From assembly GCA_038087875.1 (NCBI GenBank), contig CM075991.1, positions 2,852,001 through 2,916,000 on the forward strand: DNA of 64,000 nt, given 5' to 3'. Both the position numbers and the translations under genes were made by a program. The DNA is from Malacoraja senta (taxonomy: Eukaryota). The notes under the pieces were generated by a model that did no database searches, had not been told where the DNA came from, and worked only from the letters and a program-made list of their open reading frames with translations. This document shows, piece by piece, positions 2,098 to 63,254 of the stretch. Positions within the stretch are counted from its first letter, which is position 1, and each line of letters opens with the position of its first letter.

Positions 2098-2155
2098 TAA
2101 GAGTGTTCACTGGTAGACTATGGCCTTGTGGCATGATGTCTAGGTCTGAAGCTGA

Positions 2156-5780: not shown

Positions 5781-5784
5781 TTAC

Positions 5785-10335: not shown

Positions 10336-10522
10336 CTAATTAAGATAAAAAGGACACATTTAATCATATGCAGTAAATATTATGTCCTTTCCAGGCTCCA
10401 AATAGCAGCTTAAAGTATTTCTTTCAGAAAAGAGCCAAGCAATAATTTAATAAAAGTCCTATTGAATTACCCTGATAATTCCCCTTTCTCTTACATTTTA
10501 TACTAAAATTTTCATTTGTTAA

Positions 10523-10840
10523 GGGCCCGTCCCACTGTACGAGGTAATTCAACAGTTTTCCCGAGTTTTCCCCTGATTCGAACTCGGAGAATGTCCGTAG
10601 CGGCTCGTACGAATAACGGTAGGTACTCGCGAAATCCGGTAAACTCGTGACGTTTTTTCACCACTGAAAAATGTCCACGAGTAAAAAAATACTCGAGATG
10701 AAAAAAATGAGTATTTACTCCTATGAGCCGCTACAGGACACCCACGGACTCCTACAGACCCGCTACGGACATTCTCCGAGTTCGAATCAGGGGAAAACTC
10801 GGGAGAACGCTTGAATTACCTCGTACAGTGGGACAGGCCC
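10523..10840. mobile_element. MITE (PIF/Harbinger- or Kolobok-like) with long TIRs. Relatives at 14785-15160, 34033-34301 and a partial copy from 11647.
   Basis: TTAA|GGGCCCGTCCCACTGTACGAGGTAATTCAA...TTGAATTACCTCGTACAGTGGGACAGGCCC|TTAA; imperfect inverted repeats of ~80 bp. Confidence 0.85.
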
Positions 10841-25286: not shown

Positions 25287-28241
25287 GTATAGAAGTTGCG
25301 AGGTCATGTTGCAGTTGTATAAGAGATTTGTTAGGCCACATTTGGTGTATTGTGTTCAGTTTTGGGCACCATGTTATAGGAAAGATATTATCAAGCTGGA
25401 AAGGGTGCAGAGAAGATTTACAAGGATGTTACCAGGACTCGAGGGTCTGGGCTATAGGGAGAGGTTAGCAGGCTAGGAATTATTTGGAGTGCAGGAGGAA
25501 GAGAGGTGATCTTAAAGAGGTGTACAAAATCATGAGAGGAATAGGTGGAGTAAATGCACAGAGTCTCTTGCCCAAAGTAGGGGAGTCGAGACCCAGAGGA
25601 CATAGGTTTGAGGTGAGGGTGGGACAGATTTAATAGGTACCTGAGGGAGAACTGTTTTGCACAAAGGGTGGGGTGAGTGAATGGAACAAGCTGCCGGAGG
25701 AGGAAGGTAGCTATTATCGCATTGTTTAAGAAACATTTGGACAGGTACATTGGATAGGATAGGTTTAGAGGGATATGGCCAAAGATAGGCAGGTGGGACC
25801 AGTGCAGATGGGACATGTTGGTCGTTGTGGACAAGTTGGGCCAAAGGGCCGTATCCAATGCTGCATATCTCTATGAATCTCTAAATTTTCCTATCCATGT
25901 ACCTGTCTAAACATCTTTCAAATCTTGTTATTGTATCTGCCTCAACTATTTCCTCTGGCAGATGGTTCCATATAACCACCTGCTGTCTGAAAAAGATGCC
26001 CCTAAGGTTCCGATTAAATCTTTTCAAACACATCTTAAATCAATGACCTCGAGTTCTTGTTTCCCCTACCCTGGAAAAAAGGCTGCATTCACAGTATCTA
26101 GTCCACCCCATAATTTTATACATCTCTAAAATATCACCCCTCTGCTTCCTATACTCAAAGGAATAAAGTTCAAGCCTGCTCAAACTCTCCTTGCAGCTCA
26201 GTCTCAATTTCCTGGCAATTTCCTGGTAAACTTTCTTTGCACCCTTCCAGCTTACTGGCATCTTTTCAATAGCGGTTTAAGCGACCAAAACTGAACACAA
26301 TACTTCAAGTGCAGACTCACCAACATCGCATACAACCGTAACATAACATAACGGCCCAACTCCTATACAATTCCTTCTCCTGAAGATTTCCTTACTTTTA
26401 TACTCAAATTAATAAAGGCTAACATAGCAATGAGCTTTTAAATTGCTTGCCTCACCTGCATTTTAGGTTCAGCAAGCATTTCTAGGTCCCATTAAACAAC
26501 AATTCCCCATTGTTCACCAGTAAATAAATGTAACACTTTCCTGTTAAGTGCATCAAAGTGATTTTCTATATCATGTTCCATCAGCCATGTTCTCGGCCAT
26601 TCATTTGTCGTCTCCATTCCCCTCATGAACGCGTTTTACATCCTCCTCTATTCTCACACACAATTCTACCCAAGTTAGTCACGTCAGCAAGCTCGGCAAT
26701 ATGACATGTGGTCATCCCAGCACAATTGTTAATACAGCTCATGAAAAGCTGAGGCCCAAACACCCCATCACCGCAGCACACCAATACACCTTCTGGCAGC
26801 TTGAGAGGGCTTCCATTTACTACCAAGCCTTATTCTCCATTTGATGAACAAATCTCACTCATGTTGGCATGCTACCCCCAATTCCATGTACTCTAACTTT
26901 GTTAACCAAATTCTTGGATATATCAAATGCCTTATGAAAATCAAATACATGGAAATGTAAAAGACATGGAAATGTTCAAGACAAAGGTGATAACTTTGAA
27001 GTGAAAGGGGCAAAGATGAAACATGTGCGGAGCAAGTTTTATTTTTAACACAGAGGATCATGAGTGCCTGGAAACACACTGGGGGCAGATACAATTAGGG
27101 GCTCTAGTGGCTTTTGATCAGCACATGGATCATCAAAGGATGGAGGGAAATGGGTCAAGTTCAAGCAGAGGAGACTGGTTTAACTTGGCATCATGTTTGC
27201 CATGGACATTGTGGAACAAAGGGCCTGTTCCTATGCTGCGCTGTTCCGTTCTAAGTTCCACGTCGCATTCACTGGATACGTGACAGTCAGAAGAAGAGTC
27301 TCGACCCGAAACGTCATCCACTCCAGAGATGCTGCCTGTCCCGCTGAGTTACTCCAGCATTTTGTGTCTATCTTCACATCCACTAATGACATTCTCAAAG
27401 ATCTCCTGTAAATTTTCCTCTAATAACTCCCTAATGTTCTGCTCAAGACTACTATTCCTTTCAGGGTGTTATTATGTTCTTCAATACAGATTGTAATATT
27501 AAAAAGTGGTGGAGTAACTCAGCGGGTCAGGCAGCATCTCTGGAGAATATGGGTAGGTGACATTTCGGGTCGGGACCCTTCTTCAGAATGGTGGAACAGA
27601 GGAGGACAGAATAAAGCCTGGCTGGTAATAGGTTGATATGCAGTTTTGACATGCAGTTGGCTGGACCAAGGCCAGAGATGAAGAGGCAGAAGGTTCGAGA
27701 CAAAATGACTGATGAGTTGCAAAGTTGATTCCAATATTTTCCCAACCATTGACATGAGTCTAACAAGATCATTGTTTATCTCACCGTTTATTCTGAAACA
27801 GTGGCATCACATTTGATAGCCTCCAATCCATCAGTACTATTTTATCTCAGCTCTGATTATTCAAGGATTCGGCCCCCACAACATCCAGGGCAAGGAATTT
27901 CAAAGGCTCACAACAATTTGAAAGAAGATATTCTTCCTCATATCAATCTCAAATGTGCTCCCCCTTTTCTGAGACTCTGCTCTCTGGTCTTTGACTCTTT
28001 CACAAGAGAAAACATTGTCCTGGTAAGAACTTCATGTTTCAATTTCACTGCGAGGATAGTTGGGTTTTGTATTGGCGGGAAGGACAGTGTTAATCAGATA
28101 ATAGGTATTTGAGGCAACATCATTTTAAGTCTACGAGGAAAGAATGGGAAATGGAGTTCTGAAGTTCAGTCTTTCAGTAGCTGACAGATGTCATGGGTAG
28201 AATGGCCTTTACTCCTACCATACTAATCTGATTTATTTTTA

Positions 28242-29357: not shown

Positions 29358-29733
29358 AAAGCATGACTGAGGGAAGGAAGCATACTTCATAATTTACAAA
29401 ATAGTTCAGAAACTATATAGTTCTGATATTGCTATGGAATTAGTGAAAACAAATCAAGAACAAGTTGCACCACCAGGAGATTTTGTTTAAACAGAAGATA
29501 GACACAAAAAGCTGGAGTAACTCAGCGGGACAGGCAGCATCTCTGGAGAGAAGGAATGGGTGACATTTCTGGTCTCTTTTCGACCCAAAACGTCACCCAT
29601 GGCTTCTCTCCAGAGATGCTGGCCGTCCCGCTGAGTTTTTTGTGTCTATCTTCGGTTTGCACCAGGTGGTTGTTTTATTTAAAAATTCCATTTTTACCAA
29701 TCTGAAGCAATGGGCAAGTTTGTCAGTCCTCAC

Positions 29734-29888: not shown

Positions 29889-30629
29889 CTAGAAGATAAT
29901 AATACGTCTTTTTTAAAGAACGGTCAGTTTAGTTCATCAAGACTGATAAGTAAACATTTTCTAATGCAAAGTTCAATCTTGGGAAATTTTAAATATTAAG
30001 GCTCAAGAAGTAGAATTCATGTTTTCTCACCATATCACTCCTTTGTTTCCTCCTGTGTACAAGATTTATTCAACACAAGTTGAACCAAGTGATTTCAAGC
30101 TCCGTTCATCATCTTTGCTTCCCTTCTAAATGCTCAAGCATGTAAATATTCTGGATCATGTAGGTGAATAACCTATTAACCTTAATACTTAAATCACCTC
30201 ATTACAAATAGTACCAAGTGTGATTACTACTTTGTATTTCACACAATCCACCTTCCTTACACAACCTAATTTCTTCATAGGTAGACAAAATTGCTGGAGA
30301 AACTCAGCGGGTGCGGCAGCATCTACGGAGCGAAGGAAATAGGCAACGTTTCGGGCCGAAACAACGTTTCTGGTTTCAGTATGAAGAAGGGTTTCGACCC
30401 GAAACGTTGCCTATTTCCTTCGCTCCATAGATGCTGCCACACCCGCTGAGTTTCTCCAGCAATTTTGTCTACCTTCGATTCTCCAACATCTGCAGTTCCT
30501 TCTTGAACACTAATTTCTTCATGCCTAGGAAGGTACTGTAGATGCTGATTTACACAGAAGTTAGACACAAAATGCTGGAGTAACTCAGTGGGACAGTCAA
30601 TGGGCATGATTGTCAACATTCACATCACT

Positions 30630-33085: not shown

Positions 33086-35679
33086 CGTTTGAAACCTTTG
33101 TTCAAGAAACTGATGGCTGTAGAAAAGTAGCTGTTCCAGAACCTAGTGATGTGGAACTTAACATGTAGAACTGCAGATGCTGGTTTAAACCCGAAGATAG
33201 ACACAAAAAGCTGGAGTAACTCAGCCAGACAGGCAGCACCTCCAGAGAGAAGGAATGGTGATGTTTCGGGTCGAGACCCAAAGGTCCCAAGACTGTCGAC
33301 CCGAAAGGTCACCCATTCCTTCTCTCCAGAGATGCCTGCCTGTCCCGCTGAGTTACTCCAGCTTTTTGTGATGTGGATCTTAAGGCTTTGGTATTTCCTG
33401 TCCAACATGAAAAGAGGGTCAAGGCACTAATGGTGGTGGTCCTTCATAGATGCCACCTTCTTGAACTAGTCTTCGGCAGATAGTGGTAGAGTCATCTTGT
33501 GATAGACCTGGTTGAGTCCACCACTCTGTAGCCTCTTGTGTTCCTGGGCACTGGAACTGCCATACCATACCATGATGCATCCAGTCAAGATATTTTGCAC
33601 AGTTCACCTGTAGAAGTTTGTTGGAGTATCGGGTGACGTACTGAATCTCTTTAAACTTCTAAGCAGGCGTGCTGGCATGACATCTTCATGATTATGTCAG
33701 ACTGTTAGGTCCAGGACAGGTCATCTGAGATGGAACGTGAAACTGCTCTCTTCACTGCTGAACCACCGATCTCACAACCTCCCCATCGTGAAGATAACAT
33801 GGTTTTGTTAATGTTAAGCAAAACACAAAGTGCTGGAGGAACTCAGCAGGTTAGGAGGGAATGGACAGGTGATGTTTTGGGGTCAGACCCTTCTTCAGAC
33901 CAATAGGAGTGGGGGGGGGGGGGGAGAGAGAGGGTGTGGGAGTGTGATGAATCTTTATGTAGTCTTCCCAGAGAAGGATCTATCATCTATTACAATTGCT
34001 CTACTCTTTTAAATGTCTTTTCTACCTGTAATGGGCCCGTCCCACTTGGCGATTTTTTTGGCAACTGCTGGCGACCGTCAAAGTCGTAGCAGGCCCCGAA
34101 AAACTGGCGACAACCTATGTCAGCACCTACGTCAGGAGAAGTCAGGCTATGCTCACTGGCGTCAAACCCACTGTCGTCGTTAGCAGCGATCAGAAAGACT
34201 TTTTGTGCGACTGAGGAGACTACTTCCGGCGACCACAGGTGAACATGTGGCGAGAAACTATTGTGTGGTTGCCTAAAGAATTACCTAAGTGGGACAGGCC
34301 TATTAGTATAGCATATTCTGCTCCCTGTTTCTTCCCCTTTGCTCTATCTATTGTATTTCGAGTTTGACTTCATTGTGCGTAGTACTACCTGATCTCATTG
34401 GATAGCATGCAAAACCAAGCTTTTCACTGTACTTCGGTACACGTGGCAACAACATACCTAAACCTAGCTGGAAAAGAGAGGCTGAACAAGGCCTGGCAAG
34501 TGATCGGTGGATACAGATAAGGGGGGGGGTTGATTGGCAAATAGGTGGAGTAAGTGACAAAGGCTAGAGGTGCAAAGGGTGTAAGATAAGGAGAGGAGGA
34601 GAGAAATGTAAGGCCAGGTGGAGGGTCTCGACCCCCACCTCTCTTATCCAATATTGGCAGACTTTGATTCACCCTCACTGATCTTTCCATATTACCTCCT
34701 CGGATGTTGCCTGACCCGCCGCTGTTCCTCAACACTGTGTTTGGCTGAAGATTTCAGCATCTATTGTTCCTTGTGTCAACGTTAAGTAAGAGGTTGTTGT
34801 TGCGGCACCACTCAACCAGGAGTTCCATATCTCTCTTGTAGACTCATTCATCGCCACACATGAATGGGCCAACAACTGAGGTGTCGTCATCAAGTTGATA
34901 GCTGGTGTTGGAGCTGTGCTTAGGCCCAGAGTCATAAGGTCATAGGTGTTGAGAGTAGAATTAGGCCATTCGGCCCATTAAGTCTACTCCGCCATCAATC
35001 ATGGCTGACCTATATCTCCCCTCCTAACCCCATTCTCCTGCCATCTCCCCATAACCTCTGACACTTGTACTAATCAAGAATCTATCTATCTCTGCCTTAA
35101 AAAATCCTCTAATGGCCTCCATGGCCTTCTGTGGCAAAGACTTCCACAGATTCACCACCCTCTGACTAAAGAGTTTTCTCCTCATCTCCTTCCTAAAAGA
35201 AGTCATAAATGTAAAGAGAGTAGACCAGGCACACCTGTGCTGGTGGTTGGTGAGGAGATTGAGGGAGTCAATGATCCAGTAATAAAGGGAGATACAGAGG
35301 CCCAGGTCTTGGAGTAGGGTGAGGAGATTGGAGGGGATGAGAATGCTGAACTCCGAGCTATAGTCAATGAACAGCAGCCTGACATTAATGTTCTGTTTTC
35401 TAGGTCCAGAGCAGAGTGGAGAATCAGTGAGATAGTATCTGCTATTGATCTGTTATGGTGATAGGCAAATTAAAGCAGAACCATGTTATTTCTAGCGCCA
35501 TAACCAGCCTGTCGAAGCACTTCATTGTAGTGGATGCAAGTGTTATCGGATTATAGTTATTGAGGCAGGACATCGTGCCCTTCTTGGGCACCGATACAGT
35601 AGATGTCCTTTTGAAGCAGTTGGGAACCCCAGACCGCAGAAGCGAGAGGTTGAAGATGTCATAGAGTCATAGAGTGATA

Positions 35680-44881: not shown

Positions 44882-45514
44882 TAATTCCCAGAAAGGGACA
44901 AAATGCCTATTGTGTGTGTGTGTTTTTCTGTAGCAATCTCCATGTTGTTTTTCTTAGTGCCATATTATCTGAATGGTGTCAAGTTGGGAAAAGGGGAAGT
45001 ACAACGGGATCTGGGGGTCCTCATGTTGGCCTTCATAACAAGAGGAGTCGGGTATAGGAGCAAAGAGGTCCTTTTGCAGCTGTATAGGGCCCGTTATGAG
45101 ACCACACCTGGAGTATTGTGTGCAGTTTTGGTCCCCTAATTTGAGGAAGGACATCTATATTACTAAAACTAAGATCTTGACCGCTTTCGACTTTTTATTT
45201 TGTGATTTCTGAGAGAACGCTGCCACTTACAGCCGTCAATTTTGGTCACCTCGTTCAGAGCCCCCCTCCGCTGCATTGGACTGGAGGATTTTTCCCACCG
45301 AAGAAAAATCAGAGATTTATTAATGTTTTAAAAATTTCGCCATTCTCTCTGCTGCCCCCGCTGGCGGCAGGGGGAGGGACTAAAAACCCGGAAGTGTCAT
45401 GCCTCACTCAGTCTCTGCGAGACGGAGGAAGCGAGAGGGTCATGGCTCACGGCTCTCTGAGCTGTGAATAACACTGAACGCACGTCTACTCTACGGTGAG
45501 TCCCCTGGATGTGG

Positions 45515-46055
45515 TTTTCAGAAAATGTGTTTGTTGGCTTGCAAAGTGTTTTTGCCCAATTGGCTTGGCTTTTAAAGGGCTTTCAGAAAATGTGTTTTGT
45601 TGGCTTGCAAAGTGTTTTTGACTAATTGGCTTGGCTTTTAAAGGGCTTTCAGCAAATGTGTTTTATTGGCTTGCAAAGTGTTTTTGCCCAATTGGCTTGG
45701 CTTTTAAAGGGCTTTCAGAAAATGTGTTTTGTTGGCTTGCAAAGTGTTTTTTCCCCAATTGGCTTGGCTTTTAAAGGGCTTTCAGAAATGTGTTTTGTTG
45801 GCTTGCAAAGTGTTTTTGCCCAATTGGCTTGGCTTTTAAAGGGCTTTCAGAAAATATGTTTTGTTGGCTTGCAAAGTGTTTTTGCCCAATTGGCTTGGCT
45901 TTTAAAGGGCTTTCAGAAAATGTGTTTCGTTGGCTTGCAAAGTGTTTCTGCCCAATTGGCTTAGCTTAAAAGCCTTTAAAAAGGGCTTTCAGAAAATGTG
46001 TTTCGTTGGCTTGCAAAGTGTTTGCCCAATTGGCTTGGCTTTTAAAGGGCTTTCA
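45515..46055 (+). repeat. 66-bp minisatellite, ~8 copies (a further ~3.3 copies at 48447-48670)
   Basis: Unit TTGGCTTGGCTTTTAAAGGGCTTTCAGAAAATGTGTTTTGTTGGCTTGCAAAGTGTTTTTGCCCAA; 22-aa periodicity in the ORF track. Confidence 0.93.
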
Positions 46056-46571
46056 ACAGTTTTCGGATGGATAAAGCATGAATAAACATTTTTATTAGAT
46101 CAGGACTGTGTTTAATAGCAAAATTGGCGCTCATTACGTGTCTTCCACTTAGTGGCAAGATGGTGCCGATGATGTCATTTCCGGATAGCGGCAAGATGGC
46201 GCTGAGTGCGTCATTTCCGGTTCGTGGCAAGATGGCGCTGACTGCAGAAGGCATAGAGTGAAGATGTCGTTGAATAATTCAAGAGAGCTGACTGTTCTGT
46301 CTATGGTGAGTGTGTTTGTTGGACGTTATGTATCTCTGTCTATGTGTGTGTGTGTGTGTGTGTGTGTCTTTGTGTGTGTGTGTGTGTCTGTGTGTGAGTG
46401 TGTGTCTGAGAGTCTGTGTGTGTGTGTGTATAGGGTTGTTGCACGTAGGGTCTCCAGGTGAAAGGGCTTGACGAACAGAACCGCTCAATCCATCTGGAGG
46501 ACATCGCAGCTTCTGGTATATGTTGTTAATACATGAAACGCGTATTTTCCTACCTGCTAAAAACCGCCCAA

Positions 46572-46790
46572 ATTGTGATTTTTTGCGCTGTAAATAATTG
46601 TGGACATCGGGATAACCGTGAGAGACATCTATCCTATTTTCGAATTCCAAAAGTGAAGAGAAATGAAGGTAAAGAGAAGCAAGAGCTGAAGAGACAACAA
46701 CAGCTAAAGTGCTTGGCGAACATTGGCCGTGCAGATATCGAGATTGAAAATATTGGGAATTACCACGTTTGCTCACTGCATTTCATCAAG
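46572..46790 (+). pseudogene. THAP (C2CH zinc-finger) domain fragment carried in the Helitron; second copy at ~49365-49580
   Basis: CAVNNC...SYFRIP...KCLANIGR...VCSLHFI matches the THAP pattern C-x4-C...FxxP...W...R...VCSxHF, with the Trp replaced by Cys. Confidence 0.75.
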
Positions 46791-48446
46791 GCATTATATG
46801 TGTTTTTTCTTGATTCCTTTGGTATCTAAAGTTTCAGGAGTGATAAATCTGGCTGTAAAATCTTTAAATCGCTCATGGTTTATGAAGTGGGTTTTTACAT
46901 GCAAAAAGAAAACTCTTCTGAAGCTAAATTTATCATTAAAAAAATCTCCAAATTTACGAGTGGTGTGTGGAAAGTAAGTTTTCTATCTTTATGGTATTGA
47001 GGTATATTTTGGCAAATAATAAAATGTCCTGACAGCTTAAACACCCACTCCCTTTCAATAGGATATTGTCAATTTGCTGAGGTTGATTATGTCCAATTAG
47101 CAGCTAACAATTATGCCATTGCTTGGCTTGCATCTGAGTAAAATGTAATTCAAAACCCATGTACGGTTTGCGATTTTTTAAAAGGATACTGCCAGCCCAT
47201 CAGCTGTGAGTGACTGAACTGCCAGCCCACCAGCCGTGAGTGACTGCACTGCCAGCCCACCAGCCGTGAATAAGTGAACTGCCAGCCCAATAATCCATTC
47301 AGTCCATCCACTCCCCCTTCTCTCTCACAGAGACTGTTTTGGGCAGAATTTCTGGCAGTTTCTCGGCTGCCAGCCTGCGAGGTCCGAGTGACTGTACTGC
47401 CAGGCCTCATTGACTGAGCTGCCTGGCCACAGTGACTGAGCTGCCTGGCCTCAGTGACTGAGCTGCCAGCCCAATAATTCATTCGGCCCACAATGTCCAT
47501 ACTAGCCCTCTGGAAACCAGTCCCTTCGGCCCACAACACCCATACAAGCGCAACAGAATGTCCCCCCCCCCTCACTGGCCAGCAATATTGGAATTGGTGG
47601 AGAGGTGAAATATTGCGTTGGATGACCAGCCCTCCAGTGTGATGCTGGGACCCAACGGGTCCCACTTAGTCTAGTTATTGCTATTGAGGGAGTGCAGCAT
47701 AGCTTGACAAGGTTAATTCCCAGGATGGTGGGACTATCATATGCTGAGAGAATGGAGCAGCTGGGCTTGTATACTCTGGAGTTTAGAAGGATGGACTGGG
47801 ATCTTATTGAAACATTTAAGATTATTAAGGGTTTGGACACGCTAGAGGCAGGAAACATGTTCCAGATGTTGGGGAAGTCCAGAACCAGGGGCACAGTTTA
47901 AGAATAAGGGGTAAGCCATTTAGAACGAAGATGAGGAAACACTTTTTCACACAGAGAATTGTGAGTCCGTGGAATTCTCTGCCTCAGATAGCGGTGAAGG
48001 CCAGTTCTCTGGATACTTTCAAGGGAGAGCTAGATCGGGCATTTAAAGATAGCGGAGTCAAGGGATGTGGGGAGAAGGCAGGAATGTGCTACTAATTGGG
48101 GATGATCAGCCATGATCACATTGAATGGCGGTGCTGGTTTGAAGGGCCGAATGGCCTACTCCGGCACCTATTGCCTATTGTCATATATTTTCCCAGTTCC
48201 AATATTTACCTATTGAAAGTACAAGCGTTCATTACCTCAATTAATTTATTTTAAAGGGATACAGCATGGAAACAGGCCTTTCAGCCCACAATGACCATCG
48301 ATCACCTGTTCACTATGTTATCCCACTCTCTACAAAGTCAGGGCATTTTTGTTTTACAGAGGCCAATTAACCTAAAAAAATGACACATCTTTGGGATAGG
48401 GGAAGAAAACCCAAACACCCGGAGGAGACCAATATGGTCAAGGGGA

Positions 48447-51202
48447 TTGGCTTGGCTTTTAAAGGGCTTTCAGAAAATGTGTTTTGTTGGCTTGCAAAGT
48501 GTTTTTGCCCAATTGGCTTGGCTTTTAAAGGGCTTTCAGAAAATGTGTTTTGTTGGCTTGCAAAGTGTTTTTGCCCAATTGGCTTGGCTATTAAAGGGCT
48601 TTCGGAAAATGTGTTTTGTTGGCTTGCAAAGTGTTTTTGCCCAATTGGCTTGGCTTTTAAAGGTCTTTCAACAGTTTTCGGATGAATAAAGCATGAATAA
48701 ACATTTTATTAGATCAGGACTGTGTTTAATTGCAAAATTGGCGCTCATTACGTGACTTCCGCTTAGTGGCAAGATGGTGCCGATGACGTCATTTCCGGAT
48801 AGCGGCAAGATGGCACTGAGTGTGTCATTTCCGGTTCGTGGCAAGATGGCGCTGACTGCAGAAGGCACAGAGTGAAGACGTCGTTGAATAATTCAAGAGA
48901 GCTGACTATTCTGTCTATGGTGAGTGTGTTTGTTGGACGTTATTTAAAGCACGTTTTTGCTTCAGCAGCAGCCTCGACAGGAGGCTTTAAATGTTTGAAT
49001 CATTCGGTTTAGACACTGTATGTTCACCACGTTCTGAAGTTACTTGGCATTTTAGCATTGGTTGTGTATGAGTGCGTCTGTGTGTGTGTGTGTGTGTGTG
49101 AATGAGCCTGTGTGTCTCTGTGTGTGTATCTCTGTCTGTGTGTGTGTGTGTGTGTGTGTCTTTGTGTGTGTGTGTGTGTCTGTGTGTGAGTGTGTGTCTG
49201 AGAGTCCGTGTGTGTGGGTATAGGGGGGTTGCACGTAGGGTCCCTGGGTGAAGGGGCTTGACGAACGGAACCGATCAATCCATCTGGAGGACATCGCAGC
49301 TTGTGGTATATGTTGTTAATACACAAAACGTGTATTTTCCTACCTGCTAAAAACCGCCAAAATTTTGATTTTTTTCGCTGTAAATAATTGTGGACAACGG
49401 GGTAACCGTGAGAGACATCTATCCTATTTTCGAATTCCAAAAGTGAAGAGAAATGAAGGTAAAGAGAAGCGAGAGCTGAAGAGACAACAACAGCTAAAGT
49501 GCTTGGCGAACATTGGCCGTGCAGATATCGAGATTGAAAATATTGGGAATTATCACGTTTGCTCACTGCATTTCATCAACAGTAAGGCATTATATGCGTT
49601 TTTGCTTGATTCCTTTGGTATCTAAAGTTTCAGAAGTGATAAATCTGGCTGTAAAATCTTTAAATTGCCCATGGTTTATGAAGTGGGTTTTTACATGCAA
49701 AAAGAAAACGCTTCTGAAGCTAAATTTATCATTAAAAAAATCTCCAGACTTACGAGTGGTGTGTGGAAAAGTAAGTTTTCTATCTTTATGGTAATGAGGT
49801 ATATTTTGGCAAATAATAAAATGTCCTGACAGCTTAAACACCCACTCCCATTCAATAGAATATTGTCAATTTGCTGAGGTTGATTATGTCCAATTAACAG
49901 CTAACAATTATGCCATTGCTTGGCTTGCATCTGAGTAAAATGTAATTCAAAACACACGTACGGTTTGCTATTTTTTTAAAGGATACTGCCAGCCCATCAG
50001 CTGTGAGTGACTGAACTGCCAACCCACCAGCCGTGAGTGACTGCACTGCTAGCCCACCAGCCGTGAGTAAGTGAACTGCCAGCCCAATAATCCATTCAGT
50101 CCATCCTCTCCCCCTTCTCTCTCACAGAGACTGTTTTGGGCAGAATTTCTGGCAGTTTCTCAGCTGCCAGCCTGCCTGGTCCGAGTGAGTGTACTACCAG
50201 GCCTCAGTGACTGAGCTGCCAGCCCAAGAATTCATTCAGCCCACAACGTCCATACTAGCCCTCTGGAAACCAGTCCCTTCGGCCCAAAACACCCATACAA
50301 GCGCAATAGAATGCCCCCCACCTCACTGGCCAGCAATATTGGAATTGGTGGAGAGGTGAAATATTGCGTTGGGTGACCAGCCCTCCAGTGTGATGCTGGG
50401 ACCCAACGGGTCCCACTTAGTCTAGTTATTGCTGTTGAGGGAGGGAGTGCAGCGTAGTTTGACAAGGTTAATTCCCAGGATGGCGGGACTATCATATGCT
50501 GAGAGAATGGAGTGGCTGAGCTTGTATACTCTGGAGTTTAGAAGGATGAACTGGGATCTTATTGAAACATATAAGATTATTAAGGGTTTGGACACGCTAG
50601 AGGCAGGAAACATATTCCAGATGTTGGGGAAGTCCAGAACCAGGGGCCACAGTTTAAGAATACGGGGTAAGCCATTTAGAACAAAGATGAGGAAACACTT
50701 TTTCACACAGAGAATTGTGAGTCCGTGGAATTCTCTGCCTCAGATGGCGGTGAAGGCCAGTTCTCTGGATACTTTCAAGGGAGAGCTAGATCGGGCATTT
50801 AAAGATAGCGGAGTCAAGGGATGTGGGGAGAAGACAGATATGTGGTACTAATTGGGGATGATCAGCCATGATCACATTGAATGGCGGTGCTGGCTTGAAG
50901 GGCCGAATGGCCTACTCCTGCACCTATTGTCTATTGTCATATATATTCCCAGTTCAAATATTTACCTATTGAAAGAAGAAGCATTCATTACCTCAATTAA
51001 TTTATTTTAAAGGGATACAGCATGGAAACAGGCCTTTCAGCCCACAGTGACCATTGATCACCTGCTCACTATGTAATCCCACTCTCTATAAAGTCAGGGC
51101 ATTTTTGTTTTACAGAGGCCAATTAACCTAAAAAAATCACACATCTTTGGGATAGGGGAAGAAAACCCAAACACCCGGAGGAGACCAATATGGTCAAGGG
51201 GA
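48447..51202 (+). repeat. Second copy of a ~2.7-kb tandem duplication (first copy ~45830-48446)
   Basis: Minisatellite, motif repeats, (TG)n, THAP fragment, Helitron 3' end (CTAG at 50421-50424), CR1 3' end and SINE recur in order; junction ...GGTCAAGGGGA|TTGGCTTGG. Confidence 0.92.
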
Positions 51203-51689: not shown

Positions 51690-51889
51690 NNNNNNNNNNN
51701 NNNNNNNNNNNNNNNNNNNNNNNNNNNNNNNNNNNNNNNNNNNNNNNNNNNNNNNNNNNNNNNNNNNNNNNNNNNNNNNNNNNNNNNNNNNNNNNNNNNN
51801 NNNNNNNNNNNNNNNNNNNNNNNNNNNNNNNNNNNNNNNNNNNNNNNNNNNNNNNNNNNNNNNNNNNNNNNNNNNNNNNNNNNNNNNNN
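51690..51889. other. Assembly gap (200 N)
   Basis: Run of 200 N; true size unknown. Confidence 1.
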
Positions 51890-54800
51890 CTTCACAGGAA
51901 TATAGGATGGTCCAAAAATCTTTTTGCGACACATTGGCCTTCATCAGTTAGAGTATTGACTATAGAAGTTGGGAGGTGATGTTGCAGTTGTATAAGACAT
52001 TGGTGAGGCTGCATTTAGAGTATTGGGTTCAGTTTAGGGCACCATGATATAGGAAAGATGTTGTCAAACTAGAAAGGATGCAGAGAAGATTTACATTGCC
52101 AGGGCGTGAGAGCCACAGCTATAGGGAGAGGTTGAGCAGACTAGGACACAATTCCTTGGAGCGCAGGAGGATGAGGGATGTACAAAAATCATGAGAGGTA
52201 TAGATCACGTAGATGCACAGTCTCTTGCCCAGAGTAGGGGAATCGAGAACCAGGGGATATAGGTTTAAGGTGAGGGGGGAACGATTTAATAGGAAGAAGA
52301 GCCCGTCCAGCTGCACACGCGTCAATCTTCAAAGCTGCGGAGTGAAATCACTGACGACAATTACTGAAGTATGATAGTAAGATACATAAAGACTAGAACT
52401 ACCAGCTCGATCTTTTATGAGGGTGGGAGCGGAGGGCACGTAATCCCTCAACATAACTCCTCATAAAATAAAGATCAAACTTCAAACTGGTAAGTTCTCA
52501 TTTAATCTTACTATTTTAATTTGGAGTCACGTGAGTGACTATGTGAAGATTTCAAAGCTCTGTGATTTCAGGCCCTAGATTAAATCCAGGCGCTCACTGC
52601 ATTGATTGACTCTAAATAAGTAAAATAATCAACAGTGCACAACCATAACATGGATGCAACCAATTAATGGTTAATTTATCACCATAATAGTAACCCCTTT
52701 ATCACAAGAGGAATATTTAATACTAAATCCCCAAATAACACCACCAAATAACCATACGTATTATATTCTCCATATGTTAATAGGTGAATTCTTTCACTTA
52801 TGCCTGCAGCCACGAGGATATGTCTTATTAGAACATCCAATTCCTTGGCCGTCAAACTTGATGGTGCCCTGGTGAAATAAGATTAAACATTTTCAGTATC
52901 CATACCTGCATCAAGCAACACATGCTTTAGCCATGTTTTAAATAGTCTAAACCGACACTTTCCTATGCAGTTATTTATGGCTAATAAAATACTCATACTG
53001 AACCTTTTTAAGGTTCTGATAGCTTCAATCTAACATTGTAAATGTGATACCACACATAGACGTGGATCCGTAGGATATGGTGAAACCCCAACTTACATCC
53101 TGTGATTCCACATCTACTCTGTTTAAGCAATTCATAGACATAGAACACAATAGTAACTGTTTGTCTCTTTCCATCAATTCTATTCTTACTTTCTGCAATA
53201 GTTGCACTCTCTGTGCATAAACCAGTCCCCTGAACTTGACTTCCTAATGATAATTCAAGCCAAGGACCGCACTGTAATAGGAGTCCATAAACAAACAATA
53301 TAGCATATCTCTTACATTCCAGATTATTGTATACTTGTGTCTAAGAGGTTTTAGAATTAAAATCCTTTCATAAATTTGCAGACCAAATGGTGTACCCCTA
53401 CGATATTTTGTTCTGATTCCTCCATAGATATGCAGTATTGGCACTCCTTGCAGTATTCATATCATTATAGCTTAACTGCTAATAAAATAAAGAGTTTACA
53501 GAACTCTAACACTACTGATATGTCTATAGTGTGATATGTAATAGTCTGCTTAAACAAAACATATCCCATTTCTTTATGTAAGAATTGTACTACTTCTGGG
53601 TACATCCCTCCAGATTGCAATAATATCCATAGTACAATCTGATAGTCCTCTTCAGATAAATGTCACTCCTTAAAATCTTTAAATCAACAACCAATATGAT
53701 TATGTAAAGGATGTGAATCATCAGTTATAGAGTGCACAAACAGATTAATTCTGTTTGGAAATCATAAGAGGCTTTTGTGATCATTTTAAACACCTCAGGG
53801 TACCATGGTTTTGTAGATCCAATCTAGTACCACCAATACTCCCAAAACGGAATCCTGTTTGCTCTTCTGTATATACTGTTAAATGAGAAAAATGGAAAAT
53901 GTATACAAACATTTTACCCCTATGCAGCAAAAAAACATTCACCACTACTGCCCCAGTATCAGACTTTATAACATATATTTAGGTAATGGGTGGTTAAATC
54001 TGGATACAAACAAGTCATCAATTGTGCTATAATATTGTTAAATTTCACACGATTCAACATACATTCTATATTATCATTGATTTACATGACTTTTGAGTCT
54101 TCAACTATATTGAATCTACCTCATAGGTAGATTGCCAATCAAATATTTCTGGTAAATAGCAGATCCAGATCACATTAGTCAATTACAAGATACTGACTTA
54201 AACCACTCAAATGATTGACATACGTTCTATTCCGTAGTCTCAAACTATGTCTAAACATGCAACTTTGCATATAAGAGCAAATAAGCTTTAGGTCATAAAT
54301 GTTCCTAAAACTTACATAATGATCCCTTGTTATTTGATCAAAAGGTACTTTCTCCATATTCCCTGTACCTCCACAGCTGAAAATACGTATAAGTATGACC
54401 ACAACTTAGAGCACTACCATTAGTGTGTAGCATAATGGAAGGTGTTTAGCCAGAATCTCTCTGGAGGCATTTGAGACACTCCTGATTCATTAATATTCCA
54501 GTAATAACTGTAACTGGCAAATACATGGCCTGGCAAACTTACCATAAATTGTATTATCCATGCTTACTATAAATTTTGATAATGCCGCAATCTAAATTCT
54601 ACAGCTGAAAATAAGCAACATTTGTAACATAGGCTTGTTTCCTGCCTAATTGAAGGTTGGTGCTCTATAATGAGCTTAATACCACTTCCAATTAAATGCC
54701 TAATTAAGGATTAGTGCTCTATATTGACCTTTATACAATGGTTGATGCTCTATAATGAGCTACGTACAACTTCCACTTAAATGCAGCCTTAATCCTGCAA

Positions 54801-56994
54801 TCGAATCATGGTCATGTGTTCTCATTTAATAATGGAACCCAAATCATCAATAACTGTGTTTGGAAACTGTTTTAGATTTATCTCGATGGTTAACAAATCT
54901 CCAAAATGAGCTTTATTCTAACACTCATGGTTCTGTTGTAGTCCAAATGTTTCCTACAATCAGAATATGGCAATAGACCATTACCAAATGGCCCCGAGTC
55001 CTTAGTAAAGCTAATATTAAATCCTGTCAAATAGCCTCAAGGCTGAGGCTAAACATAATACAGTGCTTTAAATTGCCATCATTGGCTTATCTAGATAAAA
55101 TAGAAAATCTATTATACCATACACAGTCACATAGTAAAATGCTTATTTGTGAAATTGGCTGCATAACATTAACAAATGTTATCCACTGTTTATACTGTAC
55201 AAAATAGAGTTTAAATTTGTCAGATGTAGATAAATCTACACCCACCATCCTTATTTGCTCTCATAACATATTTGGCATTAATTGATGGTAATGGTGAACT
55301 GACCTCTTAATCATCTCTTTCCCACAATATTTCATGTTTTGTCTGAATCTACATATTCTCTTATTTTGAGAAAATATGTGTCTGGTTTCAAATACCTTAG
55401 TAAGAGAAACCAAATATGGGTAGAACTACATTCTAAACCCCATAATACTGTACAGTATAATATCAATTTGCCATTTTATAGTAAGCAATGTAATCTTCCC
55501 CAACTTGTAAGTGTAAAACATTTAATATGTTTCTTACAGAACCAGACCTCCTCCTCAGGGTTTGCTCATGGAAATTGTTATCCCCTGATCTTAGTGGAAT
55601 ATTATAACTTCCACATAACTCAGGAGGAGTGCGCCTATAATGCACATATGGGAAAGACAGAATTGATACTTTACTATCCCCAGTCACCACATATTGGTAG
55701 GGAAAACTGCCTTAATTTTATCTGTTAATCACACAGGATCATACCTTTTTTGGCTAGATTTTTCTAAAACAGATTAATAGACAATTTAAATATTAGATGG
55801 TGTACAGAGCCCCCCAAACTTAGGGTATATATTAGGTTTTATAGCACTTTTATAAAACAATTACTTGAAAGTGCACACTACTACATGAGTGCTAATTCAA
55901 CACATGCTCTCCATCCACCTTTGGTCAAAAAAGCCTTAACGCCTGACCAGTAATTTCAATACCCTCTCCCCCACTGAGACTTGCTTATCATGCTCAATAC
56001 TGCGGGTTTATATTTGTAGACAGCTCATACCTGGTTAGAACCTGGAGCTGCTGGGAGAGTAAGTATTTTATTGACATAGTTTATTTATCTCCCAATGGTT
56101 CCCTCATCTTTTTGGAACCAACTATACCAATTAGGCATTTAATTGGAAGTTGTATTAAGCTCATTACGTAGCACCAACCCTCAATTAGGCAGGAAACAAG
56201 CCTATTTTACAAATGTTGCTTATTTTCAGCTGTAGAATTTAGACTGCGGTATTATCAGAGTTTATAGTAAGCATGGATAGAGGAATGGATAATTCAATTT
56301 ATGGTAAGTTTGCCAGGCCATGTATTTGCCAGTTACAGTTATTACTGGAATATTAATGAATCAGGAGTGTCTCAAATGCCTCCAGAGAGATTCTGGCTAA
56401 ACACCTTCCATTATGCTACACACTAATGGTAGTGCTCTAAGTTGAGGTCATACTTATAAGTATTTTCAGCTGTGGAGGTACATGGAATATGGAGAAAGTA
56501 CCTTTTGATCCAATAACAAGGGATCATTATGTAAGTTTTAGGAACATTTATGACCTAAAGCTTATTGCTCTTATATGCAAAGTTGCATGTTTAGACATAG
56601 ATTGAGACTACGGAATAGAAGGTATGTCAATCATTCGAGTGGCTTAAGTCAGTATCTTGTAATAGACTGGCTAATGTGATCTGGATCTGGTGTTTACCAG
56701 AAATATTTGATTGGCAATCTACCTATGAGGTAGATTCAATATAGTTGAAGACTCAAAAGTCATGTAAATCAATGATAATATAGAATGTATGTTGGATCGT
56801 GAGAAATTTAATAATATTATAGCACGATTGATGACTTGTTTGTATCCAGATTTAACCACCAATTACCTAAATATATGTTATAAAGTCTGATACTGGGGCA
56901 GTAGTGGTGGATGTTTCTCGCTGCATTGTGGTAAAATGTTTGTATACATTTTTCCATTTTTTCTCATTTAACAGTATATACAGAAGAGCAAACA

Positions 56995-58042
56995 GTAGGT
57001 ATGTTACAATACTTACCTTCAGCGGCGCTGTAATTCTGCCACTGGCCGTGTGCGTGATTTTGGCGCCTTTAAGGGGGGGGGGGGGGGGGGTTAAAACGCG
57101 GGTTTCTCCTACCTTGTCCTGTATTATATGTCGTTGGAGTGCAACCTTTTGCTGAAATCTTTCCTACGGGCGTTTTGTGTATTTTTTATTTTTATTAAAT
57201 CGACAATGTCAGCGCTGGAGTCATTTTAAAATCAGCTTCTGAAGCCGTCAACGCCGACAACGGGGACGGATTTCACACACGGGACAGGTAAACGAAAGTG
57301 GTTTATTTTAATGTATAAAAGTGCTTCTTAAGAAGCCTTTAATTCATATTTTTTCATGCGAAACGGTGATATTTTTCCCCGAACTAACGGCAGAATTTTT
57401 CATGCCGATACGGGGTTAAAATCACCGCAAATCAACGTTCCAAATGATCGCGTTCTAGAAAACCTCACTCGCAAAATGATTTAAATGGCCATTAATTTAC
57501 AGGTATTAAACATTCAATTCCTTCCATTCGGCCTGTTAATCCATGACAATGAGATTTAAAAATTATGTTATATTGTGAATTCTTGTGTGAATGTTATTTG
57601 GACACTTAGGCTATTTAAAAATGTTAATCTATTCTTAAGAAATTGATAGATGTTTAGATCTAGTAATTGAATTTTGTAATTAGCTACAATTAGGTAACTA
57701 ACTAATTATATGCTTTAATTTCATGTCATCTAAGTAAGATTGTTTCATATTTGTTTCAGAATGCTTCAATCTATAATAACTGAAAATTTCTTTCAGTTCT
57801 CTTAATTTTTATGAAAGTTATGGGCTTTTGACTGTCCTCGATCACAGCTTTTGTGTTAAGTCAATGGAAAAGCAATAGGGAACAAGATGCTAATTTCCGA
57901 GTATGAAAATGGCCATAACCTTTTTAATACTGAAGATATGAAAGTGAATTAGGTGTCAAATTTAACTTATTTTTATGCTTTATCTGATGGGATAAATTGC
58001 AGACTTTATTTTTTAAATCTCAAAATTTTGTAACATTGCTAC
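56995..58042. mobile_element. Non-autonomous TIR DNA transposon (superfamily uncertain) in the right DIRS arm
   Basis: TIRs GTAGGTATGTTACAA / TTGTAACATTGCTAC. TSD is AAACA (or CAAACAG if the termini are TAG...CTA). The empty site is visible in the left arm at ~53850-53865. Confidence 0.85.
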
Positions 58043-58591
58043 AAACAGGATTCCGTTTCGGGAGTATTGGTGGTACTAGATTGGATCTACAAATCCATGG
58101 TACCCTGAGGTGTTTAAAATGATCACAAAGCCTCTTACGATTTCCAAACAGAATTAATCTGTTTGTGCACTCTATAACTGATGATTCACATCCATTACAT
58201 AATCGTATTGGTTGTTGATTTACAGAGTTTAAGGAGTGACATTTATTGGAAGAGGACTATCAGATTGTACTGTGGATATTATTGCAACCTGGAGGGATAT
58301 TACCCAGAAGTAGTACAATTCTTACATAAAGAAATGGGATATGTTTTATTTAAGCAGAATATTACATATCACACTATAGACATATCAGTAGTGTTAGAGT
58401 TCTGTAAACTCTTATTTAGTTAGCAGTTAAACTGTAATACTATGAATACTGCAAGGAGTGCCGTTACTGCATATCTATGGAGGATTCAGAATAAAATGTT
58501 GTAGGGTTACACCCTTTGGTCTGCAAATTTATGAAAGGATTTTAATTCTAAACCTCTTAGACACAAGTATACAATAATCTGGAATGTAAGA

Positions 58592-60422
58592 AGAGAAAGA
58601 GATTAATTAAAACAAATGTAGGTCCCTTGCAGTCAGAAACAGGTGAATTGATCATGGGGAACAAGGGCATGGTGGACCAATTGAATAAGTACTTTGGTTC
58701 CGTCTTCACTAAGGAAGACATAAATAATCTGCCGGAAATAGCAGGGGACCGCGGGTCAAAGGAGATGGAGGAACTGAGTGAAATCCAGGTGAGCCGGGAA
58801 GTGGTGTTAGGTAAATTGAATGGATTAAAGGCTGATAATTCCTAGGGCCAGATAGGCTGCATCCCAGAGTACTTAAGGAAGTAGCTCCAGAAATAGTGGA
58901 TGCATAGTGATAATTTTTCAAAACTCTTTAGATTCTGGAGTAGTTCCTGAGGATTGGAGGGTAGCTAATGTAACCCCACTTTTTAAAAAGGGAGGGAGAG
59001 AGAAAACGGGGAATTACAGACTAGTTATTCTAACATCGGTAGTGGGGAAACTGCTAGAGTCAGTTATTAAAGATGGGATAGCAGCTCATTTGAAAAGTGG
59101 TGAAATCATTGGACAAAGTCAGCATGGATTTACGAAAGGTAAATCATGTCTGACGAATCTTATAGAAATTTTCAAGGATGTAACTAGTAGAGTGCATAGG
59201 GGAGAACCAGTGGATGTGTTATATCTGGACTTTCAGAAGGTTTTCGACAAGGTCCCACATAAGAGATTAGTATACAAACTTAAAGCACACGGTATTGGGG
59301 GTTCAGTATTGATGTGGATAGAGAACTGGCTGGCAAACTGGAAGCAAAGAGTAGGAGTAAACGGGTCCTTTTCAGAATGGCAGGCAGTGACTAGTGGGGT
59401 ACCACAAGGCTCAGTGCTGGGACCCCAGCTATTTACAATATATATTAATGATTTGGACGAGGGAATTGAATGCAACATCTCCAAGTTTGCGGATGACACT
59501 AAGCTGGGGGGCAGTGTTAGCTGTGAGGAGGATGCTAGGAGGCTGCAAGGTGACTTGGATAGGCTGGGTGAGTGGGCAAATGCATGGCAGATGCAGTATA
59601 ATGTGGATAAATGTGAGGTTATCCACTTTGGTGGCAAAAACAGGAAAGCAGACTATTATCTAAATGGTGGCCGATTAGAAAAAGGGGAGATGCAACGAGA
59701 CCTGGGTGTCATGGTACACCAGTCATTGAAAGTAGGCATTCAGGTGCAGCAGGCAGTGAAGAAAGTGAATGGTATGTTAGCATTCGTAGCAAAAAGATTT
59801 GAGTATAGGAGCAGGGAGGTTCTACTGCAGTTGTACAGGGTCTTGGTGAGACCACACCTGGAGTATTGCGTACAGTTTTGGTCTCCAAATCTGAGGAAGG
59901 ACATTATTGCCATAGAGGGAGTGCAGAGAAGGTTCACCAGACTGATTCCTGGGATGTCAGGACTTTCATATGAAGAAAGACTGGATAGACTCGGCTTGTA
60001 CTCGCTAGAATTTAGGAGATTGAGGGGGGATCTTATAGAAGCTTACAATATTCTTAAGGGGTTGGACAGGCTAGATGCAGGAAGATTGTTCCCGATGTTG
60101 GGGAAGTCCAGGACAAGGGGTCACAGTTTAAGGATAAGGGGGAAATCCTTTAGGACCGAGATGAGAAAAAATAAATTCACACAGAGAGTGGTGAATCTGT
60201 GGAACTCTCTGCCACAGAAGGTAGTTGAGGCCAGTTCATTGGCTATATTTAAGAGGGAGTTAGATGTGGCCCTTGTGGCTAAAGGGATCAGGGGGTATGG
60301 AGAGAAGGCAGGTACGGGATATTGAGTTGGATGATCAGTCATGATCATATTGAATGGCGGTGCAGGCTCGAAGGGCCGAATGGCCTACTCCTGCACCTAT
60401 TTTCTATGTTTTTATGTTTTCT
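58592..60422 (+). mobile_element. 5'-truncated young CR1 LINE with a 472-aa open RT/C-terminal frame
   Basis: ORF 58907-60325 with QHGF, GVPQGSVLGP and FADD; TSD ATGTAAGA at 58584-58591 and 60423-60430. Confidence 0.95.
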
Positions 60423-61260
60423 ATGTAAGAGATATATTATATTGTTTGTTTATGGACTCCTATTACAGTGCTGTCCTTGGCTTGAATTACCATAATGGAA
60501 GTCAAGTTCAGGGGACTGGTTTATGCACAGAGAGTGCAACTATTGCAGAAAGTAAGAATAGACATGATGGAAAGAGCAACAGTTACTATTGTGTTCTATG
60601 TCTATGAATTGCTTAAACAGAGTAGATGTGGAATCACAGGATGTAAGTTGGGGTTTCACCATATCCTACGGATCCACGTCTATGTGTGGTATCACATTTA
60701 CAATGTTAGATTGAAGCTATCAGAACCTTAAAAAGGTTCAGTATGAGTATTTTATTAGCCATAAATAGCTGCATAGGAAAGTGTCGGTTTAGACTATTTT
60801 AAAAATGGCTAAAGCATGTGTTGCTTGATGCAGGTATGGATACTGACAAAGTTTAATCTTATTTCACCAGGGCACCATCAAGTTTGACGGCCAAGGAATT
60901 GGATGTTCTAATAAAACATATCCTCGTGGCTGCAGGCATAAGTGAAATAAGGAGATTATAATACCTGTGGTTATTTGGTGGTGTTATTTTTTGGTTTTAA
61001 TATTGAATATTCCTCTTGTGATAAAGGGGTTACTATTATGGTGATAAATTAACCATTAATTGGTTGCATCCATGTTATGGTTGTGCATTGTTGATTGTTT
61101 TACTTATTTAGAGTCAATCAATGCAGTGAGCGCCTGGATTGAATCTACAGCCTGAAATCACAGAGCTTTGAAATCTTCACATAGTCACTCACGTGACTCC
61201 GAAGTAAAATAGTAAGATTAAACGAGAGCTTACCAGTTTGAAGTTTGATCTTTATTTTAT

Positions 61261-61631
61261 AGAAACATAGAAACATAGAAAATAGGTGCAGGAGTAGGCC
61301 ATTCGGCCCTTCGAGCCTGCACCGCCATTCGATATGATCATGGCTGATCATCCAACTCAGTATCCCATCCCTGCCTTCTCTCCGTACCCCCTGATCCCTT
61401 TAGCCAGAAGGGCCACATCTAACTCCCTCTTAAATATAGCCAATGAACTGGCCTCAACTACCTTCTGTGGCAGAGAATTCCACAGATTCACCACTCTCAG
61501 TGTAAAAAATGATTTTCTCATCTCGGTCCTAAAAGACTTCCCTCTTATCCTTAAACTGTGACCCCTTGTTCTGGACTTCCCCAACATCGGGAATAATCTT
61601 CCTGCATCGAGCCTGTCCAACCCCTTAAGAA
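61261..61631 (-). mobile_element. CR1 3' fragment inserted in the DIRS ICR
   Basis: Reverse CR1 tail; flanked by a duplicated TTTAT. Confidence 0.88.
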
Positions 61632-63254
61632 TTTATGAGGAGTTACGTTGAGGGATTACGTGCCCTCCGCTCCCACCCTCATAAAAGATTGAGCTGGTAG
61701 TTCTAGTCCTTATGTATCTTACTATCATACTTCAGTAATTGTCGTCTGTGATTTCACTCCGCTGCTTTGAAGATTGACGCGTGTGCGGCTGGACGGGTTC
61801 TTCTTCACGTAGTCCGTCAACGTAACTCCTCATAAAATAAAGATAAACTTCAAACTGGTAAGTTCTCATTTAATCTTACTATTTAATAGGAACCTGAGGG
61901 GTAACCTTTTCATGGAAACGTTGATAGGTATATGAAACAAGCTGCCAAAGGAGGTAATTGAGCCAGGGACTATTGCAATGTTTAAGAAATATTTAGACAG
62001 GTACATGGATAGGACAAGTTTAGAGGGATATGGGCCAAATGCAGGCAGGTATGACTAGTGTAGATGGGACATATTGGCCAGTGTGGGCAAGTTGGGCTGA
62101 ACAGCCTGTTTCCATGCTGTAAGATTCTATAACTCTTTGAAAGTTGACTGTTCCTGAAGTTCTTTGGGCTCCATGAATAACGATTGTTCAACATCAACGC
62201 AGGTACCTCAAATCTGAAACACCTTCACATTATCCTGAACTACAGATATCCCTGTGGGGTACACACTGGGGGGAAATAGATGGAATAGATGGTTGGGCTT
62301 CCGAAGACAAGACAAGAGACAAGCAAGAGACATTTATTGTTACATGCACCAATTGGTACAGTGAAATTTGTGGTCACCATACAGCCATACGAATAAAATA
62401 TGTATTCGCACTTTATTTTAACACACACGATAGTCTTTAACACAAACATCCCCACACAGCGGAATCAAGTTTCCCACTGTGAGGGAAGGCACCAAAGTTC
62501 AGTCATCCTCCACTGTTGTTCTGTTGTTCACCCATTGTCGGGGCCTCCCCCCGCTATCGCCGCTACGGGCAGCCCGATGCTCAGGCCCTCTCGCCGGGAT
62601 GATGGAACTCAGACGTCGGAACGGGAGAACATTCTCAGCGGCCACTTCCACAGTCCGAGCTGGGCGGAGATTCACGCTGGTGGCCCTCGGCAAAGGGTCC
62701 CAGGACTCCACGATGTTGAAGTCAGCGCCGCCTGCGGCTGGGAGCTCTGCAAACCCCAGCTCCGTGATGTTGAAGCAGCAGGCCCAACACTCCGGAGCTT
62801 CAAACGACGATACGGGTAAAGCATCGTCCCGCTCCGCGATGTATCCAGCGCTGTGCCGCCGCCGAAGCTTTGGCCGGTCTCCGGCAGGAAAAGCCGCGCC
62901 AATCCAGTTGGTAGGCCACGAGAGGGGGGCGAGGACGCGACTCGGAGAATAGTCGCATCCTCGCCAGGAGGTGACTGGGAAATGGTCTCCCCCTTACCCT
63001 ACCCCCCTCCCCCACATAGAAAAGCTAAAGAAATCCTCCAAAACATACCTTTAAACAAATGCAGGTGGATAACGTTTTGGGAAAGAAGTCTGAAGAAAGG
63101 TCTGGTCCAAAAACGTTATCTACCTATATTCTCCAGAGATGCTGCCTGACCCACTGAATTACTCCAACACATTGAGTCTGAAATATTTTGTTTCTTAAAT
63201 GTTCCATATTTATTCAGGCTTTCAGCACGGATTAGCCTAGTGCACATTCAAATT

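Follow-up and report, generated by a model that had tools for sequence, protein, structure and literature searches.

A palindromic DIRS1-like element with 2.4-kb inverted arms in Malacoraja senta, possibly born by snap-back of an aborted cDNA

A large palindrome of DIRS1-like sequence interrupts a CR1-type LINE in the window analysed here, a stretch of 64,000 nucleotides from Malacoraja senta (GenBank assembly GCA_038087875.1, contig CM075991.1, positions 2,852,001 to 2,916,000 of the forward strand). The host CR1 lies on the plus strand; its left part (51890..52287) starts at a 200-N assembly gap (51690-51889), 400 bp left of the palindrome, and is 14% apart from paralogues at 25288-25637 and 14388-14512 in BLAST comparisons, and its right part (61885..62136) reaches the 3' end. 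Differing overall by 14–21% from its paralogues, this CR1 is older than the split between the two arms of the palindrome. The insertion site is present once in two CR1 paralogues, and the loose CR1 end after 52295 runs on as the right flank in four of four public runs. The original prediction of a CR1 contiguous across the whole structure was thus borne out and, with it, that of one insertion event at a single target site. Runs X1 and X5 (organisms A and B; 5% of words) cover the terminus and the CR1 deeply and the interior thinly, and are uninformative on the empty site. Elements classified as Gypsy/DIRS1 make up 2.5–3.7% of five batoid genomes, according to the accessible text of a preprint (10.64898/2026.10.27.761883).

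Other CR1 sequences in the window include a tail-to-tail pair of oppositely oriented 3' ends of the host family, ~65% alike (25287-26368), and a CR1 3' end in each copy of a direct duplication of ~2.1 kb at 93% identity (46329-48446 and 49125-51202). Open LINE frames of 265, 413 and 384 codons occupy, respectively, 22510-23307, 23584-24825 and 2097-3251; by eye, the clade of the first looks different from CR1. A tandem array with a 66-bp unit (45513-46059) has a shorter second block 2.4 kb away (48446-48674), short palindromic MITE-like repeats occur in more than 15 copies (for instance at 5502-5785, 29485-29665, 30279-30511 and 33167-33370), and 10518-10845 is a self-inverted element of 328 bp (74%). 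Searching the 64-kb window for other pieces of the palindrome's DIRS found none (six matches, all with E 0.72).

The palindrome had been predicted to consist of 2.4-kb arms that are reverse complements of each other once three insertions are removed, and a self-comparison had been proposed. Run as self-BLAST, this gave collinear inverted blocks at 94–96% (52293-52467/61806-61632, 52463-53317/61260-60423, 53310-53861/58591-58042 and 53855-54705/56995-56129), that is, three collinear blocks plus an outer block, and together with alignment it upheld the arms at 52293-54705 and 61806-56129. With the nested insertions set aside, they differ at 99 of 2389 aligned sites (4.1%; K2P 4.3%), through 51 transitions and 48 transversions. 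The left arm (52293..54705, minus strand) carries the RT thumb, RNase H, MT, YR, both ICR halves and the inner right ITR, as defined by self-BLAST and alignments, and the outer terminus is absent from it. Contiguous with it on the same strand is the spacer, or loop (54706..56128), containing the end of ORF1 (56094-55756) and RT (55538-54740). At the fold junction (56128..56129), antisense ORF1 abuts sense RT thumb, from where the right arm (56129..61884, plus strand) runs to a complete right terminus, interrupted by the three insertions. A degenerate triple repeat (54640..54790, minus strand) lies at the RT/thumb boundary, and the right arm begins at the junction between its second and third copies. 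A small duplication at 54655-54790 had been placed at the fold point; the repeat exists, but it marks the landing site, and the fold itself is at 56128/56129. The sequences brought together share no word longer than 4 nt where the right arm actually lands (background p=0.51), and the adjacent copy of the repeat offers one of 6 nt (p=0.036). Among the 15 joints listed, of 403 from public contigs, none spans the fold, and the junction is known from this assembly alone. Because the arms have diverged by 4.1% and carry three insertions with target duplications, we treat the structure as biological, and not as a read fold-back or a mis-join.

Coding remnants lie in DIRS order along the minus strand. 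Pfam matched none of 12 whole decayed frames and neither of two RT segments, so that the profile searches for RT, MT and YR envisaged in the original prediction were empty on this side, but frameshift-aware alignment scored above all 40 shuffles. The decayed tyrosine recombinase ORF (52754..53691, minus strand) retrieved 25 phmmer matches among 1.84 billion proteins, the best of them from Leucoraja erinacea (E 3.2e-10); 14 of the 15 scanned matches contain Phage_integrase (Pfam), and the remaining one an MT-like domain plus the YR N-terminus. A word-seeded search for homologues of the decayed YR/MT frame gave none among 4159 candidates, and Rfam had no match in 51890-62400. As reference for the frameshift-aware alignments we used P0026, a Holothuria (sea-cucumber) protein with Pfam RVT_1, a weak Dam and Phage_integrase; the 29–34% identities to this protein stem from forced alignments and carry no significance. 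Minus-strand scores exceeded those of all 40 shuffles in five of five segments (ORF1, RT, thumb/RNase H, MT and YR), recovering the RT, RNase H, MT and YR regions in the order typical of DIRS. The YR scored 236 against a shuffled maximum of 44, and the MT, within a decayed RNase H plus methyltransferase region (53834..54460, minus strand), 59 against 39. The thumb/RNase H segment is only weakly resolved by strand (minus 52, plus 44, shuffled maximum 41). Both the YLDD and the HSTR catalytic motifs are altered in the alignment to P0026.

For the spacer, ORF1 and RT scored 59 and 57 on the minus strand and 33 and 25 on the plus strand, with shuffled maxima of 47 and 40. Since the plus-strand scores are background and the minus-strand ones exceed the shuffles, the spacer continues the left arm. 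The decayed RT previously noticed in this 1.4-kb spacer is therefore there, together with the end of ORF1, and its assignment is corrected to the minus strand, as a continuation of the left arm. On these alignments, the minus strand of 56128-52293 reads as a single 5'-truncated copy, with the ORF1 end at 56094-55756, pol at 55538-53834 and YR at 53691-52754, and 56129-61884 reads as a shorter plus-strand copy, from the RT thumb to the complete terminus.

The right end is canonical, in agreement with the complete ICR/ITR/TTT terminus predicted, and its terminal TTT lies at a target TTT. The right terminus (61806..61884, plus strand) is complementary to the right ICR, with which it forms a hairpin (z=-5.8); it matches the right ICR copy at 95%. 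In the left arm, the ICR (52437..52549, minus strand) comprises a right half (52437-52516), which is a copy of the right terminus, a TTT circle junction (52514-52516) and a left half that extends to 52549. The two halves overlap at this 3-bp TTT junction, following the two-part definition of the ICR in the accessible text of the survey of DIRS1-like elements (PMC3266345). The join of ITR to terminus (joint 52318/52437) is present in four of four public runs. A left terminus, complementary to the left ICR, is absent from this copy. A search for a normal copy, with two terminal motifs in metagenome contigs and one in viral contigs, gave no locus. We also considered that the right terminus was inherited, from its 3/79 differences to both ICR copies, and dropped the argument (chance p=0.23). 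In each of the four runs the terminus/ICR region at 52332-52619 reaches a summed depth between hundreds of thousands and millions, even in organisms A and B, where contigs hardly extend over the interior of the element; such terminus/ICR ends seem to be common to many DIRS families.

The left junction (52284..52297, plus strand) is composed of ATTT, AATAG and GAA, and allows two readings, a duplicated target or the beginning of a right terminus in reverse (9/10 match) that then lost 72 nt. Two copies of the 12-bp word ATTTAATAGGAA are present in the window, at 52284 and 61881; none of 100 shuffles contains it. Among its 12 bases, only the five of AATAG are absent from the present ends of the element, and AATAG also fits the reversed terminus; all 12 bases on both sides are thus also readable as derived from the element. 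The duplication on both sides that had been predicted is real, in two copies, but should not be taken as a plain target site duplication, since part of it may come from the element. Of the eight target bases that follow the TTT on its right, seven agree with the reversed terminus of the element, as do nine of the ten bases that open the left junction. Allowing three registers, background sites of equal quality in the window were 0 of 767 ATTT and 2 of 3017 TTT. The part missing from the left arm is bounded exactly by two AAGA words that stand 72 nt apart in the reversed terminus, and these 72 nt are one stem of the terminal hairpin. Because the target resembles the reversed terminus (7/8, as opposed to no other ATTT site), the left arm is likely to have started out with a complete right terminus and to have lost 72 nt afterwards. 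The 7/8 match was noticed post hoc, and a target preference of the whole family would weaken this two-tailed argument.

The three nested insertions all lie in the right arm; each is flanked by an exact target duplication, and the left arm retains the corresponding empty site. The first is a non-coding element of 1046 bp (56996..58041; insertion 56996-58048), with 14-bp TIRs matching at 12/14 and an exact 7-bp target duplication, and may be hAT-like. The second (58592..60422, plus strand; insertion 58592-60430) is a 5'-truncated CR1 LINE with an 8-bp target duplication and an open RT frame of 482 codons, 85–93% identical to three Leucoraja erinacea proteins; it differs from a paralogue by ~5% at codon positions 1–2, similar to the split of the arms. 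The third is a CR1 3' end within the right ICR (61261..61631, minus strand; insertion 61261-61636), with a 5-bp target duplication. That all three are in one arm has a probability of about 0.06; this, and the apparent age of the large CR1, sit less well with a single event.

Both arms share the same ORF decay, as predicted: each of the 14 left-arm stops recurs in the right arm, and of 20 frameshift calls, 13 are separated by more than 10 nt from the nearest indel between the arms. The common stops argue that the template was already dead before the duplication. Together with the domain order on the minus strand, this sustains the earlier description of the element as DIRS1-like and copied from an already dead template.

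The family of this template was followed in public runs X7 and X8 of organism C (one study, two samples; 47% and 38% of words; contigs at 80% likeness). Summed contig depth across 24 of 24 interior bins was 7,700–72,000 in X7 and 1,400–9,500 in X8, with 19–84 and 4–66, respectively, for the long pieces listed; these values are to be read only as pointing to a many-copy family, RT part included, given that summed contig depth does not equal copy number. A single one of the 14 stops has an alternative letter among the 40 variant sites listed, of 353, and 89–93% of the depth in X7 and X8 keeps the letter of the window. Going by this one checkable stop, the family would mostly carry it and appears to have spread widely after the death of its ORFs. 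The ratio of summed depth between arms and spacer was 1.36 and 1.25 (medians 1.34 and 1.12), where 2 is expected if most copies were palindromic; such a ratio, since depth is not copy number, speaks weakly against a palindromic family, and the palindromic non-autonomous family first suggested is as yet unsupported.

Comparison with the family also bears on whether one template gave rise to both arms. We compared 23 of the 25 left-arm sites listed, the other two being without variant depth in X7 or X8. There are 12 near-fixed differences from the family, 10 of them private to the left arm, with the family letter in the right, and two common to both arms. At 11 listed polymorphic sites the arms agree in 10, including a minority letter at 53111-53112. 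This sharing of variants indicates that the two arms started out almost identical and not far from the common form of the family. A/T-derived differences number 45 versus 31 between the arms (p=0.14), and neither arm looks older.

Together, these features lead us to explain the palindrome as a faulty replication product of a dead, trans-mobilised DIRS1-like family, in which an antisense cDNA, its synthesis aborted, would have snapped back, served as its own template and entered the genome in a single insertion, a reading that we give about an even chance of being correct. The RNA of an ORF-dead copy would have been reverse-transcribed by the proteins of another element, with the antisense cDNA starting at the right terminus and stopping about 3.9 kb later, within the end of ORF1. 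The cDNA may then have bent its 3' end back over 1.4 kb, the distance spanned by the loop, to pair with its own strand at the RT thumb, and copied itself to the end, giving a hairpin in which both strand ends are the right terminus, in keeping with the geometry of arms and spacer. Such a hairpin could have been inserted once in the old CR1, at a site that resembles both of its ends (ATTT plus the 7/8 match to the reversed terminus), joined either by YR strand exchange or by microhomology capture at a break. The left arm would later have lost its outer 72 nt between the two AAGA words; three elements entered the right arm and divergence between the arms reached 4.1%. Snap-back is expected to leave a unique loop flanked by two right termini. 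A snap-back or template-switch origin had been the explanation first put forward, and it stands as the leading one: its main difficulty, that the complete terminus belongs to the arm that the loop does not continue, is lifted because the left junction resembles a reversed terminus. Linear single-stranded antisense DIRS-1 cDNA lacking only the left LTR is known, according to the accessible text of PMC7192593. Against snap-back, homology at the fold is weak, the fold junction does not appear among the 15 joints listed, and the deletion of 72 nt is an extra event to be supposed, with a 7/8 match that is post hoc and that a family-wide target preference could explain. Likewise, should organism C belong to a different species, the two shared near-fixed sites could simply separate the species, and the nested insertions fall in one arm only, the large CR1 looking about as old as the arm split.

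A rather unlikely alternative is double priming, in which both 3' ends of a staggered break would prime on sense RNAs from the same source locus, through LINE machinery or break repair, and the truncated cDNAs would be end-joined head to head. It would account for the microhomology at both outer junctions, with up to 12 duplicated bases, and has parallels in the nested CR1 insertions of this locus, with their 5–8 bp duplications and tail microhomology. For L1, two templates give products of opposite orientation (PMC11702581), and inversion junctions carry duplications (PMC12350158), as described in the accessible parts of these papers, but the experimental overlaps in the former are of 1–10 bp, versus 2.4 kb here. 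Double priming also requires two RNAs from one locus in a many-copy family, yet the arms share polymorphic and near-private letters, and the palindrome has no poly(A) tail. Recognition by CR1 may require CR1's own 3' tail, which would also count against it.

The later deletion becomes unnecessary if a reverse transcriptase on sense RNA jumped at the thumb to an antisense right-ITR RNA and ran to the 5' end of this RNA, within the ITR, the linear cDNA being then joined to the target. We see such copy-choice as very unlikely, although the left end of the palindrome coincides with the edge of the stem paired with the ICR and adjoins an unpaired bulge, and although a 4-kb antisense RNA, lasDIRS-1, arises from the right LTR of Dictyostelium DIRS-1 according to the accessible text of PMC3950715, compared with 3.84 kb for left arm plus spacer. 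A cDNA that ends there should regain a left terminus from the left ICR, and the 7/8 match between target and reversed terminus is left as a coincidence. On the extent of the right LTR in sense DIRS-1 RNA, the texts of PMC7192593 and PMC3950715 disagree in the parts accessible. No better are the prospects of an in-situ rearrangement of a normal copy by replication template switching (of the FoSTeS/MMBIR or ODIRA type) through its inverted ITRs. It would explain a right junction with a canonical terminus at a target TTT and arms identical at birth, and inverted duplications with microhomology are common, according to the accessible text of PMC12350158; however, it involves three junctions, the loss of the left terminus and of most of ORF1, and a gain of target or terminus bases at the left. 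Moreover, only two of the 12 near-fixed differences are shared, so that a rearrangement must date from soon after insertion. Finally, two independent insertions at one site with a central deletion, or an assembly artefact, are highly improbable: DIRS-1 tends to enter older copies (accessible text of PMC7192593), a 200-N gap lies 400 bp to the left and the fold is missing among the listed joints, but there is one target site in a contiguous CR1, the arms share near-private letters, and their 4.1% divergence and three insertions with target duplications are unlike a read fold-back.

The snap-back reading has a counterpart in the copy-back, or snap-back, defective genomes of RNA viruses, where the polymerase abandons its template to copy the strand it has just made, so that one terminus appears twice around a unique loop. 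The palindrome differs from these in being a DNA fossil in a chromosome, of which a single copy has been seen. It resembles DIRS1-like elements such as DIRS-1 of Dictyostelium (PMC3266345) in the order ORF1, RT, RNase H, MT and YR, an ITR of ~150 bp, a two-part ICR overlapping at TTT and a right terminus TTT at a target TTT. Unlike them, it lacks a left terminus and most of ORF1, contains 2.4 kb of the 3' half twice, inverted, has 5–12 bases that appear duplicated at its target, and all its ORFs are dead. Its family amplifies without working ORFs, as do TOC1 of Chlamydomonas and zebrafish DIRS-N1, so far as the accessible literature describes them, but this family keeps recognisable, point-decayed remains of every domain. 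With the twin-priming inversions and two-template insertions of L1, in the accessible accounts of PMC11702581 and PMC12350158, it shares an inverted 5' block, junction microhomology and perhaps a short target duplication; it departs from them in its DIRS cargo, a product overlap of 2.4 kb, the lack of poly(A) and outer ends that are probably both the element's 3' terminus. Degenerate DIRS1-like families are already known (accessible text of PMC9210276). We found no description of a fold-back DIRS copy in the titles and opening abstract lines of the literature consulted, nor in the accessible text of PMC9004415, PMC6387122 and PMC6681497, with most subscription papers and Repbase/Dfam, whose entries may already cover the family, outside its scope. 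What is new is the match of the target to the reversed terminus, the DIRS1-like structure and non-autonomous elements of DIRS order being already known.

In all, the palindrome is probably a one-off, dead fold-back variant of a known element class. We regard as quite unlikely that two-tailed fold-back products recur and are mobile in this skate DIRS family, whose recombinase would integrate hairpin cDNAs at sites resembling a tail-to-tail junction, without a left end or an ICR-closed circle; if true, this would amount to a second route of DIRS integration, and would fix the start of the cDNA. As one dead copy, the palindrome implies no functional change, and is a molecular fossil rather than a new working system. 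The replication of DIRS elements is still largely a model, with the primer unknown and the specificity of the recombinase untested (accessible text of PMC7192593), and a fixed aberrant product preserves steps that are erased in normal copies. A DIRS family that spread after the death of its ORFs offers many copies in which to count fold-back events. If our snap-back reading holds, the cDNA would start at the very right terminus, the reverse transcriptase could fold back, and a molecule without a left end could integrate where the site resembles two right ends.
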